From a virus (lineage: Duplodnaviria; Caudoviricetes), in the IMG/VR virus record IMGVR_UViG_3300005805_000232, positions 1 to 36,010 of that record: 36,010 nucleotides of DNA. One strand, written 5' to 3'. This document shows, one piece after another, positions 16,119 through 20,817 of the stretch. The notes below the pieces were generated by a model. The model saw only the letters and a list, made by a program, of their open reading frames with translations, was not told where the DNA came from and did no database searches. Within the stretch, counting starts at the first letter, position 1. Each line of letters opens with the position of its first letter. The position numbers were made by a program, and so were the translations under genes.

Positions 16119-17141
16119 ATGACAATTAAACGTATAGGTTTCGCCTGCAAATGGATAGATCATCCTGAACAAATGGATGGTATTAAACCTAAAGATGCAG
16201 CCAAAAAATACAACACTGGTAAGACAACTATAACTTGGCTTAATAGACAAAGTCGTGCTGCTGCAGAACAACGACTATGGGATTTAATGAAGCAAAACAT
16301 TGAATCAACTAGACAACTTGTAACTAAAATTGGAGATTTACAACATGAACTTAGAATGGTTCGTCTTTCAAGTGATATTTTGCCTGCTTTTACTGAGCCT
16401 AGTTGGCGTTACTTTTGGCAGTTACCTGATGTACAAAGATATGCAGAAAGAGCATTCGCTGAGGTCGGAAGGGTGGCTCGTGATCGTAATGTTCGGCTTA
16501 GCTTTCATCCTGGCCAGTTCACTGTGCTTGCTAGCGATAACCCTGAGATTGTTGAACGTTCTATAGAGGAGTTTGAATACCATGCTACAATGGCCGCTTG
16601 GATGGGGTTTGCCCAGAGATTTCAAGACTTTAAAATCAACGTCCACATCGCGGGTCGAGCCGGTCCACAAGGTATCAGATCGGCCTATCAAAAGCTCTCA
16701 CCAGAAGCAAGAAACTGCCTTACCATCGAAAACGAAGAAATAAGTTATGGATTGGATGATTGTCTTAGCATTAGTGATCTTGTGCCTATCGTGCTCGATG
16801 TACATCATAATTGGGTGCGTGAAGGGGTATACATTGACCCAACTAGTGACAGCGTTAAAAGAGTGGTGGACAGTTGGCGCGGTGTTCGTCCTGCTATGCA
16901 TTATAGTGTCAGTAGGGAAGACCTTTTGACTGATCATTGTACACAAACCTTACCAGATTATCAGCAATTAATTGGTAAAGGATATAAAAAACAAAAACTT
17001 AGAGCACATTCTGATTTTTACTGGAATATGGCAGTTAACAAATGGGCCCTTAGTTTCCTAGATCAATTTGATATTATGTGCGAATGCAAATCAAAAAATC
17101 TAGGTGCACACGCTTTATATCAATTAACTAAATCCGATTAG
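16119..17141 (+). CDS. uvsE: UV damage endonuclease
   Basis: RIGFAC, RLSSD, RLSFHPGQFTVLAS, TIENEE, LDVHH, HYS, RAHSD, DIMCECKSK. Confidence 0.95.
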   Translation: MTIKRIGFACKWIDHPEQMDGIKPKDAAKKYNTGKTTITWLNRQSRAAAEQRLWDLMKQNIESTRQLVTKIGDLQHELRMVRLSSDILPAFTEPSWRYFWQLPDVQRYAERAFAEVGRVARDRNVRLSFHPGQFTVLASDNPEIVERSIEEFEYHATMAAWMGFAQRFQDFKINVHIAGRAGPQGIRSAYQKLSPEARNCLTIENEEISYGLDDCLSISDLVPIVLDVHHNWVREGVYIDPTSDSVKRVVDSWRGVRPAMHYSVSREDLLTDHCTQTLPDYQQLIGKGYKKQKLRAHSDFYWNMAVNKWALSFLDQFDIMCECKSKNLGAHALYQLTKSD

Positions 17142-17500
17142 TCTGTAGTTTTTTTAGCAGTAGGCTTCTTTGGTTTGGCGGCTGCTTTTTTTGCTACTGC
17201 TTTTGGAGCAACTGCTTTAGGTGCTGGATCTTTTTTTGCTCTAGTTTTTTTTGGTGGTTCTGCTGCGGGTGCTTCAACTGCTGGTGCTGATGTTTTAGGC
17301 ATGATAGCTTCCTTTTCGGTAGGGTGTAAATTTGTTGCTGTCACTGCTGCAGGTGCGACGTGCACTGGAGGTGCTGCAGGTTCTATTTTGTATGGTGCAT
17401 TCATCTCTTGCACTTTACGATCTACATAGTCCAATGGATGCTTGTCAGATTTGGGTTTTAAACCAGTTATAAATTCTGAAATCTTACTTAGTAACCACAT
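17138..17500 (-). CDS. Protein with amphipathic N-terminus and Lys/Ala/Pro-rich histone-H1-like tail
   Basis: GAGGA SD before ATG 17500; tail PKAVAPKAVAKKAAAKPKKPTAKK. Confidence 0.75.
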   Translation of the reverse strand: MWLLSKISEFITGLKPKSDKHPLDYVDRKVQEMNAPYKIEPAAPPVHVAPAAVTATNLHPTEKEAIMPKTSAPAVEAPAAEPPKKTRAKKDPAPKAVAPKAVAKKAAAKPKKPTAKKTTD

Positions 17501-17526
17501 GATAATTCCTCTCATTGATATAGAAA

Positions 17527-17621: not shown

Positions 17622-17909
17622 ATGTTCACATTTGATCCTATTATTGATGCAGTACAAAACGGTAAAAAGCAATTTGTAAAAACTTTTGTAACAAATGGAA
17701 AAATTGCAGATTCCATGAATACCTTCATCGATACACAAACAACGTATACCAAGGAAGCCAGTAAGGCCAGTTTAAATATGTATACAGATGTAATGAATGA
17801 AATGATTAAAAATAGCCAAGAAACTCTTAAATTTGATTACACAAAGTTTGGCGAGGGGATCATGAAGGCCTATTACAGTCAAATGAACAAACCCAAATCT
17901 AACGGTTGA
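17622..17909 (+). CDS. Small amphipathic helical protein, possibly phasin-like
   Basis: TAAGGAG SD; helical pattern, no Cys or Trp; phasin assignment rests mainly on the upstream operator. Confidence 0.45.
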   Translation: MFTFDPIIDAVQNGKKQFVKTFVTNGKIADSMNTFIDTQTTYTKEASKASLNMYTDVMNEMIKNSQETLKFDYTKFGEGIMKAYYSQMNKPKSNG

Positions 17910-19118: not shown

Positions 19119-19556
19119 ATGATTAAATTATTAACCATATTTTTACTTACTGTATTTACATCTATCGCCTACGCTCAAAAAACTCCTCAAGGTGTAATTT
19201 ATGACGCAACAATAGTAAGAATTAATGATGGAGACACTGTAGTTATCGCTGCCCCATTTCTCCCAGCACCTCTTAAACCAGAGTTGGCAGTCAGAGTGTT
19301 TGGCGTCGATACTCCAGAAAAAAATCACCTTGCCAAATGCGAATCAGAAAAACAACGTGGATTGGCAGCAACAGAATTTACAAAAAAAATGGTCGCTGCA
19401 AGTCAAAAGAGACAGGTCGTACTTTATTCCTGGGATAAGTTCGGCGGGCGTGTACTTGGTGATTTACTATTAAACGGACAAAGTCTACGTGCAATGCTAA
19501 TTCAAAATGGATTTGCTAGAGAATACTTTGGCGAAGCAAAAACAAGTTGGTGTTAA
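19119..19556 (+). CDS. Secreted thermonuclease (SNase-like)
   Basis: Signal peptide; RINDGDT, VRVFGVDTPE, DKFGGRVLG, LIQNGFA. Confidence 0.9.
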   Translation: MIKLLTIFLLTVFTSIAYAQKTPQGVIYDATIVRINDGDTVVIAAPFLPAPLKPELAVRVFGVDTPEKNHLAKCESEKQRGLAATEFTKKMVAASQKRQVVLYSWDKFGGRVLGDLLLNGQSLRAMLIQNGFAREYFGEAKTSWC

Positions 19557-19580: not shown

Positions 19581-20360
19581 ATGGGATGGAATCCTTTCAA
19601 GAAAAAAACATGGACAGACGCTGGTAAAACAATTAGCAAAGGCGTAAGTTATACTACAAATACTGTAACAAAAACAGTTACAGATACTGCTAATACCGTG
19701 GCGAAAGAAACCACAAACATCTATAATACCACAAAAGATTTTGCTGTCAGTCTAGCTAATGATACAGCAAAAGCAGTAGAACATACTACCGCAGTCTGCG
19801 TTAAAAACTCGGAGGTATATGCTAAACAGGGCTTTGATGTGACATCGGACACATGGAAGCAGGGCACAAATCAAGTTATTCAATACGCAAGTCAAGGTGT
19901 TGAATATGTAGAATATGCTGCAACAGAAGCATATAAATGGGCAGATGCTAATGCCTGTTATATTGGTCTAAATATGGCCTTGACTACTGGTTGTGTTTTA
20001 TATTTTACTCCAAAACCCGATCCCGCTGAACCAGGCACTGTTACTAGCACTGCAATCAGCACTACCTATTTGGGATATATTGCAGCAAAAGGAGCAAATA
20101 CTGCAATGGCCATGGCTATCGGCGAAATCATTACAAAGTCTATTCTTTTAATTCCTGGTGTAAAAGGCAATGTTAATGAACAACTATTGAATAGAGTTAT
20201 AGTAAATGCAATTGCAACCTGTAATCCTGCAGTCTTAGCAGTAAGCCTTGCAACACCCGCAGGTGTAGGAATTTTCATTGGTTCTGTAATTTCCCCAATA
20301 GTAGCTCAATTAGTATGCGAAAAAACTGCTCCTAAAGGTCTAACAAAGGCAATTGCCTAA
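19581..20360 (+). CDS. Hypothetical protein with Thr/Ala-rich amphipathic N half and hydrophobic C half
   Basis: GAGGA SD; MGWNPFKK start; several small-residue hydrophobic helices. Confidence 0.7.
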   Translation: MGWNPFKKKTWTDAGKTISKGVSYTTNTVTKTVTDTANTVAKETTNIYNTTKDFAVSLANDTAKAVEHTTAVCVKNSEVYAKQGFDVTSDTWKQGTNQVIQYASQGVEYVEYAATEAYKWADANACYIGLNMALTTGCVLYFTPKPDPAEPGTVTSTAISTTYLGYIAAKGANTAMAMAIGEIITKSILLIPGVKGNVNEQLLNRVIVNAIATCNPAVLAVSLATPAGVGIFIGSVISPIVAQLVCEKTAPKGLTKAIA

Positions 20361-20386: not shown

Positions 20387-20480
20387 TAAATATATAATAC
20401 GCCTTAGGACCGTTAAACTTTGGGCGTAGGCGGCTGCTGCCAGTGTATTATTATCGCCATTCTAATACCAAAGTGAGCAA
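20387..20480 (+). ncRNA. Candidate structured RNA downstream of late promoter TAAATA
   Basis: GC-rich island with three stems (20398-20428, 20429-20441, 20445-20468) and loop-tail complementarity TGCT/AGCA. Confidence 0.5.
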
Positions 20481-20499
20481 TTTTTAAGGATGTGCCACT

Positions 20500-20817
20500 A
20501 TGGTAAGATTAATTGCAGTGGCGTTCCTATTTTGCGCAAGCACCATAGCCAACGCCCAAAGTGAATTTCGTAATATTCCTAAAACTGTCTTATGTGGGCC
20601 TGCAGATGGGGTATTTAAAGCATTGGCAGACCCAGAAATAAATGAAAAACCAGTCTGGTTAGGTAAAGAAGATAATAAAACTACTGATTATGCCTTATTT
20701 GTTAATCAACAAATGGGCACTTTTACTATTATACAATTCGCAAAAAATATGGCCTGTATAATAGGCATCGGCAATCAAAGTAATCTTTTACCAGAAAAAT
20801 CAGCTGATGTAAAATGA
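20500..20817 (+). CDS. Secreted hypothetical protein with two mature-region Cys
   Basis: TAAGGA SD; signal peptide ending ANA; VLCG ... MACIIGIG. Confidence 0.75.
   Translation: MVRLIAVAFLFCASTIANAQSEFRNIPKTVLCGPADGVFKALADPEINEKPVWLGKEDNKTTDYALFVNQQMGTFTIIQFAKNMACIIGIGNQSNLLPEKSADVK

Follow-up and report, generated by a model that had tools for sequence, protein, structure and literature searches.

Organization of the locus

The window, i.e., the whole stretch of DNA analyzed here, is a 36-kb virus record (36,010 nt) carrying genes of the jumbo-phage type, such as those for a UV-damage endonuclease, sugar enzymes, a nuclease, and a desaturase. Upstream of the region of interest lie an ORF on the minus strand (17141-17515) for a Lys/Ala/Pro-rich tail protein and a 95-aa ORF on the plus strand (17622-17909); neither has a convincing Pfam match, and we take the first to be histone-H1-like and the second to be phasin-like. 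The element described in this work lies in a gap of 139 nt, flanked by a 259-aa ORF that ends at 20360 and a 105-aa ORF with its start at 20500. All of the parts that an earlier note on this DNA had pointed out, i.e., a TAAATA hexamer, hairpin P1, a GGC/GCC stem (P2) around GGCTGCT, hairpin P3, a 3′ tail, and a Shine-Dalgarno-like (SD-like) sequence behind it, are present in the sequence (Table 1), and the stretch is the GC-rich island that it was said to be (47.6% compared to 36.0% for the window).

Table 1. Positions of the element, its parts, and the flanking genes in the window
Feature	Position	Strand	Remark
Nuclease gene	19119..19556	+	PHROG endonuclease family, SNase-like; loose end at 19553 in run X2
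259-aa ORF	19581-20360		Separates the RNA from the nuclease gene; matches no PHROG or Pfam family
TAAATA	20387..20392	+	Likely late promoter of the window copy (putative role)
P1 hairpin	20398..20428	+	Arms 20398-20408/20418-20428; -9.7 kcal/mol; 5′ arm and loop carry guide 1
Guide 1	20402..20415	+	14 nt exactly antisense to E. coli 23S rRNA 1917-1930
P2	20429..20441	+	GGC/GCC; 3 bp in the window, 4 in most relatives
Loop 2	20432-20438	+	GGCTGCT; 5′ strand of the pseudoknot
P3 hairpin	20445..20468	+	Arms 20445-20450/20463-20468; bears loop 3
Guide 2	20455..20462	+	Minority type; 8 nt antisense to 23S rRNA 1968-1975
3′ tail	20470..20479	+	AGC (20476-20478) and a preceding G pair with loop 2
105-aa ORF	20500..20817	+	No family; homolog (38% identity) after the RNA in L068

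Five bases separate TAAATA from P1, a hairpin that contains two G.U pairs and one U.U mismatch in the window and in which part of guide 1 is base paired. Loop 2 and the tail form an H-type pseudoknot into which P3 is inserted. The earlier note saw no U-tract after a stem, but an A and five T (20480-20485) directly follow the pseudoknot strand and lead into the purine-rich SD-like run, which starts at 20486. The fold energy of the window copy is no better than that of shuffled sequences (z = -0.03; 97 of 200 shuffles were equally good), so any claim about structure had to rest on relatives. No Rfam family matched the window at the gathering score or the gap at E ≤ 10, and ARAGORN found no tRNA.

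Distribution of the element among jumbo phages

A gapped pattern built from two motifs of the element retrieved at least 119 loci in IMG/VR, from which we estimate about 310 stored stretches. Patterns in which other parts were left free gave IMG/VR estimates of about 450, 980, 200, 180, 340, and 810 stored stretches, and metagenome contigs gave about 1,100, all of these figures being counts of stored stretches and not of genomes. One further pattern yielded 44 matches, few of which were the true motif. The element usually occurs once per genome: of 10 large records searched with a sequence-only model, 9 had a single strong copy, while the complete genome G006 (353 kb) had two. The second G006 copy (L256 1455-1553, or G006:C1 about 76,920-77,016) has kept the pseudoknot and loop 3, with 10 nt of antisense sequence, and has lost the loop-1 motif, while a 7-nt word antisense to the loop of helix 69 lies upstream of it. 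Other copies deviate in different ways. L1007 has both guides but seemingly no pseudoknot tail, whereas in L613 and L679 the pseudoknot is present and P3 is short and contains neither loop-3 guide.

The possibility of bacterial copies was considered and dropped. In GTDB, 12 stretches fit the pattern and only one is the real motif (L249, NZ_JBBAKG010000001.1), which sits amid phage-type genes on a 183-kb contig of a Haliscomenobacter MAG; this contig is likely a binned jumbo phage and gives no evidence on the host. The distribution of the element is phage-only, and the family is common in lake jumbo phages. The comparison with Rfam that the earlier note had called for turned up no known family. 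Against Rfam 15, 20 homolog loci gave five weak matches, none covering the core of the element, and no family match was found for it in seven loci of 20 kb. The window thus carries a copy of a folded RNA element that is widespread among giant bacterial viruses and lies outside the Rfam families.

Cultured carriers were reached through the G006 terminase, which shares 54% identity with the terminases of Pseudomonas phages PA5oct and Paride. A blastn search of the window's element or of a typical one against cultured phages gave no match. The model found one match in each of these two phages (E = 2e-5; in PA5oct in the region 115,474-115,560 of NC_071039), with the exact 11-mer of loop 1 present. 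In both, 11 and 9 nt of exact antisense sequence are kept and loop 2 and the stems are rewritten, with the rewritten loop 2 still pairing with the tail. The start of this copy coincides with the stop codon of the gene upstream, and a hairpin and a T-run come after it. Eleven records of this Pseudomonas phage genus hold the element at 99-100%, unannotated. In the accessible part of the PA5oct study (Lood 2020, PMC7318152), table S3 places a promoter before the upstream gene, facing the same way as the element, and the four ncRNAs reported from RNA-seq do not include the element; phage-gene counts for gp189 were not found in the supplement. The model found no copy in Phosso, Atu_ph07, pEa_SNUABM_35, 121Q, GAP32, RaK2, or 2.275.O, so the element is not universal among cultured jumbo phages.

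Covariation defines a pseudoknotted scaffold

In an alignment of 76 sequences, 90.5% of the cells pair and the covariation score is 0.497, compared to 0.148 ± 0.011 for shuffled alignments. None of 500 shuffles reached the score of the alignment, and sliding the partners reduced pairing to 30-44%. P2 and P3 show compensatory changes across relatives. When each arm was folded with its own or with a swapped partner in 120 of the 224 nonredundant copies, P1 gave -6.1 versus -4.4 kcal/mol and P3 gave -7.6 versus -3.1 kcal/mol. P1 itself is as short as 4 bp in some copies, and in others it is long and contains an inserted hairpin.

The earlier note had proposed that loop 2 pairs with the tail. The partners covary as it predicted, although in another register than the UGCU/AGCA that it gave: the joint changes of loop 2 and the tail establish GCU/AGC plus a C-G pair, which in the window places GCT (20433-35) on AGC (20476-78) and C20437 on a tail G. 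Copies with an A at position 5 of loop 2 carry a G-U-R-G-Y tail in 13 of 18 cases, versus none of the 192 copies with G. When only loops 1 and 3 were held constant, loop 2 differed in 25 of 108 copies among the matches listed, and the tail changed along with it, e.g., in 10 of 10 copies with a C>G/G>C swap. Three tail pairs could be formed in 99 of 101 copies, a count that is biased high because the tail triplet was chosen as the best-pairing candidate; the double swaps themselves are clear. The last A of the tail varies in 37 of the 192 copies of the commonest loop type. A further suggestion, that CCG or TCGCC pairs with GGCGG, did not hold: the first bases of GGCGG are part of P2 and switch to CC/GC in 27 of 90 copies.

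Taken together, the scaffold (P1, P2, P3, and the pseudoknot) is free in sequence and two loops are fixed. With relatives in IMG/VR, a covariation score far above that of shuffled alignments, and no Rfam match, the checks that the earlier note had proposed support a novel, conserved, pseudoknotted small RNA.

The loops are complementary to the helix-69 region of 23S rRNA

The two fixed loops were compared to rRNA using E. coli rrlB as the antisense test target. Across the family, loop 1 is antisense to 23S positions 1920-1930, an 11-nt core that guide 1 of the window extends; the predicted target of guide 1 is the 3′ strand of helix 69 and the loop after it. Loop 3 is antisense to 1930-1937 in most relatives and falls within 1964-1976 in a minority that includes the window. 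Among the 294 matches listed, 252 have the main version of loop 3, 13 the type aimed at 1968-76, 26 the type aimed at 1964-71, and 3 are unassigned; more closely, the minor types are antisense to 1966/68-1976 and 1964-1969/71. The three versions are mutually unrelated in sequence, yet all are aimed at the same part of 23S rRNA. In the 23S secondary structure, the 1964-1976 segments presumably border the same junction as the main targets.

With a pattern lacking the guide-1 motif, the 11-mer was exact in 160 of the 217 copies listed and within two changes in all 217. With loop 1 unselected, at least 11 nt of exact antisense sequence were present in 92 of 108 copies among the matches listed, and bases outside the search pattern also followed the antisense sequence (CC in 96 of 96). 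Shuffled loop 1 matched either strand of 16S or 23S rRNA with P = 0.0023, and shuffled versions of both loops did so within 60 nt of each other, on either strand of 16S or 23S rRNA, with P of about 8e-6. Guide 2 of the window alone gave a shuffle P of 0.011, and two relatives of the same type gave 0.0007-0.003. The common 1964-69 type of loop 3 has a match of 6 nt only (P = 0.21), one copy having 8 nt (P = 0.013). Taken alone, the 14-nt match of the window is within chance, and a 13-nt match also occurs in an ORF at 19854. Wobble-compatible changes in guide 1 were about as frequent as internal mismatches (15 versus 16 copies of 217). The exchange of one guide for another aimed at a neighboring site lends indirect support to covariation of guide and target, the latter being invariant in the likely hosts.

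The optional hairpin inserted in P1 carries words antisense to 23S 1908-1916, the loop of helix 69. At least 5 nt antisense to helix 69 were found in 157 of 198 unique P1 inserts, compared to 21 (maximum, 31) for shuffled inserts, the relatives not being independent of each other. The target is identical in the 39 Pseudomonadota genomes with a match, the other 22 of 61 being unmatched at two mismatches, probably because of missing rRNA sequence. It is also identical in the 13 Bacteroidota genomes with a match (of 31) and differs in one Actinomycetota genome, in the stem of helix 69. The predicted duplex has an energy of -24.5 kcal/mol, versus -9.7 for P1 and -6.4 kcal/mol for helix 69. When the window RNA was cofolded with 100 rRNA tiles, the tile 1850-1935 ranked first (-21.3) and an unrelated tile second (-19.9).

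Loop 2 was also considered as a third guide and rejected, as loop 2 and the tail are rewritten together in divergent copies and in PA5oct. Its region (window 20430-20439) has 10 nt exactly antisense to 16S 519-528 in the 530 loop, a match common to the commonest form of the family and lost in divergent copies. Loop 2 also pairs, with wobbles, to 23S 1902-1911, and loop 2 plus the tail match 23S 1070-76 and 1099-1105. None of these matches is therefore required, and they may be chance or a lineage-specific extra. We consider it probable that pairing with rRNA is the function of the element. The earlier note came closest with its small-RNA reading and missed the antisense nature of the loops.

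Orientation, transcription, and gene context

The strand on which the element acts was examined from its base pairs. On the plus strand, P2 has 24 G.U pairs versus one A.C, and the pseudoknot variants use U.G pairs, which would be A.C on the opposite strand. The signal of P3 is weak (75 G.U and 53 A.C), and the energies of whole elements favor neither strand (the plus strand was better in 73 of 167). These data bear on a rival reading in which the functional entity would be the minus strand or the DNA, with rRNA words serving as a decoy for proteins of helices 69-70 or for an I-CeuI-type homing endonuclease, which has its site in this 23S region. The reverse complement does spell 23S 1908-1937, and folding energy is without strand preference as just noted. 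However, the words come as split and permuted pieces, so there is no contiguous DNA site, and the excess of G.U in P2, the U.G pairs of the pseudoknot, and the co-orientation of genes, promoter, and terminator with the element all point to the plus-strand RNA. We regard such a decoy as very improbable.

The element follows closely on genes. In 106 of the 129 nonredundant copies listed, a same-strand ORF ends in the interval that runs from 16 nt ahead of the loop-1 motif to 3 nt within it, and in 32 of the 129 the UAG of that motif is itself the stop codon of the upstream ORF. In several loci (L001, L011, L032, L047, L097, and others), ORFs of one family, 80-110 aa long, extend into the RNA; as these ORFs stop at the UAG of the element, their last codons double as P1 and guide 1. 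In the window, transcription from a late promoter had been proposed in the earlier note. TAAATA, which we take to be a late promoter from its role in T4-like phages, occurs 26 times on the plus strand and 14 times on the minus strand of the window, several times immediately before ORF starts, but lies upstream of only 9 of the 127 relatives listed. As most relatives lack their own promoter and start at the upstream stop codon, the hexamer is a trait of the window copy and not of the family. In close relatives, i.e., in L068 and in a contig of run X2 (which may be the source sample), the RNA comes directly after the nuclease gene, so that the 259-aa ORF and TAAATA look like a later insertion in the window. 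The single RNA run, X1 (small share), gave one contig of 133 nt covering the downstream ORF only and not the element.

Of the 127 relatives listed, 33 have TAAATA in the 45 nt behind the tail and 43 have a TTGAC-like word there (counts for which no background was computed), and in 22 of 127 a U4 run lies no more than 2 nt from the tail. The downstream gene starts 1-148 nt after the tail. We scanned 78 downstream proteins, i.e., 77 of the 118 found plus that of the window, the omitted ones being mostly repeats of an 86-aa gene and short fragments. A Pfam family was assigned to 29 of 78, over 15 kinds, and the products are mutually unrelated (terminase, desaturase, ferritin, nuclease, isocitrate lyase, and others). 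Genes for S-adenosylhomocysteine hydrolase, terminase, or isocitrate lyase come right after the RNA in L122, L276, L128, L315, and L130, and many radical SAM and desaturase genes lie near the RNA in carrier phages. Within 10 kb, replication genes are the commonest neighbors; 40 of 69 loci have a family B DNA polymerase at this distance. An association with tRNA genes was dropped, as none was found in 54 loci of 6-20 kb. The changing neighbors and the position after ORF ends argue that the element is a single-locus RNA gene that closes a transcription unit and not a leader.

The same context weighs against the riboswitch reading of the earlier note, e.g., a SAM/SAH-like sensor acting on the downstream gene. 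The commonest loop 2 and tail do resemble the SAM/SAH core as given in the accessible text of PMC6411933: both form an H-type pseudoknot with a C-G closing pair (C8:G17), a GCU/AGC core (G10-C11-U12), a looped-out base 13, and U16, and 9 of the 78 downstream proteins are radical SAM or AhcY. Compared to that riboswitch, however, the element is one pair shorter, has Watson-Crick pairs in place of A6.C19 and A7.A18, and presents two additional conserved loops. The strictly conserved 14-nt loop with A6.C19, A7.A18, U16, and looped-out 13 described in the same text was not found, nor was a position in the 5′ UTR of metK with the tail as ribosome binding site (0 of 78 downstream proteins). The other downstream genes are unrelated, promoter-like motifs often lie between the tail and the gene, core nucleotides are replaced in divergent copies, many of which lack the looped-out base, and no Rfam riboswitch family matched. 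A SAM/SAH-like pocket was dropped on the gene context and this changed core, and we hold a riboswitch of any kind to be extremely improbable.

Comparison with known RNAs

Bacterial antisense RNAs that present their recognition bases in loops include CopA/CopT of plasmid R1, RNA I/RNA II of ColE1, and the two-loop OxyS-fhlA pair. Like these, the element has its recognition bases in hairpin loops and contains a conserved loop complementary to a putative target RNA. It likewise has two loops for one target and would likely start from a loop toehold and proceed by strand displacement. It differs in that the predicted pairing is with host rRNA and not with an mRNA or primer, that it is encoded by a virus and would act in trans, that its scaffold is a pseudoknot, and that no sequence relation exists. 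A peptide nucleic acid against helix 69 (described in the available text of PMC12828698) is antisense like the element but synthetic, and the phage RNA would be its several-armed natural counterpart.

Short antisense arms to conserved rRNA are also found in the C/D and H/ACA guides and U3-type chaperones of archaea and eukaryotes. Archaeal guide RNAs target helix 69 too, and in them, as in the element, a guide can be replaced by one aimed at a site close by. The element could thus be a guide or scaffold that brings a modifying enzyme or nuclease of the phage or host to domain IV of 23S rRNA, in the manner of C/D or H/ACA RNAs. Its two short guides, its protein-sized scaffold, the richness of the carriers in radical SAM and AhcY genes, and the modified bases of the region (1911, 1915, 1917, 1939, and 1962) count for this proposal. 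On the other hand, box C/D and H/ACA motifs were not seen in the alignment, the element has no gene linked to it, and the host is bacterial. The box motifs and cognate proteins of TIGR, C/D, and H/ACA guides were absent: five large carriers had no RluD-type pseudouridine synthase (PF00849, 0 of 5), FtsJ-type, or RNase III family, and six carriers including PA5oct had no Nop (PF01798, 0 of 6), RlmD/TrmA-type, or RlmH-type family. The 5′ guide of the element would also pair 5′ of its 3′ guide, the reverse of an H/ACA pocket. An enzyme of the host, or one of an unrecognized kind, may still be the partner, but we consider a guide RNA unlikely.

A ribozyme of a new class, cleaving itself or, with the loops as substrate arms for 23S rRNA, cleaving in trans, would fit an RNA that is compact, pseudoknotted, variable in its stems, placed in varied gene contexts, and located at transcript ends. 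Yet no Rfam family of the HDV-like/theta, twister, twister sister, pistol, hatchet, or hammerhead ribozymes matched the element. The HDV fold has a nested order of helices that differs from the order P1-P2-P3-tail, and theta ribozymes differ by their neighboring tRNA genes. Apart from the guides, little fixed sequence is available for a catalytic core, since divergent copies have a different loop 2 and tail, and cleavage 5′ of the UAG in copies where it is the upstream stop would yield a nonstop mRNA. A ribozyme is in our opinion improbable.

Proposed activity on the ribosome

We slightly favor the view that the element is a multiarmed, protein-free RNA with which jumbo phages invade helix 69 and the helix-70 junction of the host 50S subunit and seize the ribosome pool, i.e., a natural antisense RNA against rRNA, and possibly part of the means by which carriers like Paride mobilize ribosomes or their nucleotides in slow-growing and dormant cells. 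The plus-strand RNA would be made from its own promoter in the window and elsewhere as the 3′ end of the upstream mRNA. The exposed bases of loop 1 would serve as a toehold from which strand displacement opens the weak extension of P1 and the stem of helix 69, with loop 3 and the optional hairpin as added anchors. The pseudoknot may provide a rigid, exonuclease-resistant platform for the two loops that protects the RNA end. A bound subunit would be blocked from maturing or from joining the small subunit, and the outcome would be a halt of new ribosome assembly or a decay of subunits that releases nucleotides for a 300-kb genome.

Published data, as far as the accessible text of each source goes, describe helices 67-71 as flexible in late 50S intermediates (PMC3737534) and loop 70 as single stranded and cut by MazF toxins (PMC5408214), and a peptide nucleic acid against helix 69 (Kulik 2017, cited in PMC12828698) is reported to block translation and growth of E. 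coli. Because the region is flexible and accessible and an antisense molecule has this effect, we commit to inhibitory binding of free or immature 50S subunits, counterintuitive as an inhibitor is for a lytic phage that needs ribosomes. For the whole chain, from binding of the free or maturing 50S subunit through the unzipping of helix 69 to inhibition, the chances appear about even.

The same complementarity could instead be helpful, the RNA splitting idle or hibernating ribosomes, chaperoning helices 69-71, or shielding them from toxins that cut loop 70. A phage requires working ribosomes, and the carrier Paride replicates in deep-dormant cells (PMC10761892), which may be linked to ribosomes; the main text of that paper, in its accessible part, makes no mention of them. 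Guide 2 ends two bases before UUCCU, the cut site of MazF-mt3/mt6 in the available text of PMC5408214, although this leaves the site outside the guide. A duplex of 20-30 bp through helix 69 is also hard to square with an active bridge B2a. We find a helpful role rather unlikely.

As for precedent, we know of no bacterial or phage RNA that acts by pairing with rRNA. The full-text literature, with subscription papers mostly outside it, yielded no description of the motif or of a phage RNA antisense to 23S rRNA or helix 69. The element is not mentioned in the accessible parts of the PhageExpressionAtlas preprint or of the Paride paper (PMC10761892). Motif words are absent from four supplementary tables of Fremin 2023 (PMC10690425), tables that come without alignments, so that the motif may be among the unnamed candidates there.

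Bridge B2a is made by helix 69, which is the last to mature, so its opening by an RNA would represent a new viral control of translation, ribosome assembly, or rRNA turnover. The carriers include the model phage PA5oct, with public RNA-seq (GSE130190), and the dormancy-killing phage Paride, which makes the proposal testable at once. If true, the element would also offer a design, shaped by evolution, for antisense antibacterials directed at a site that is conserved universally.
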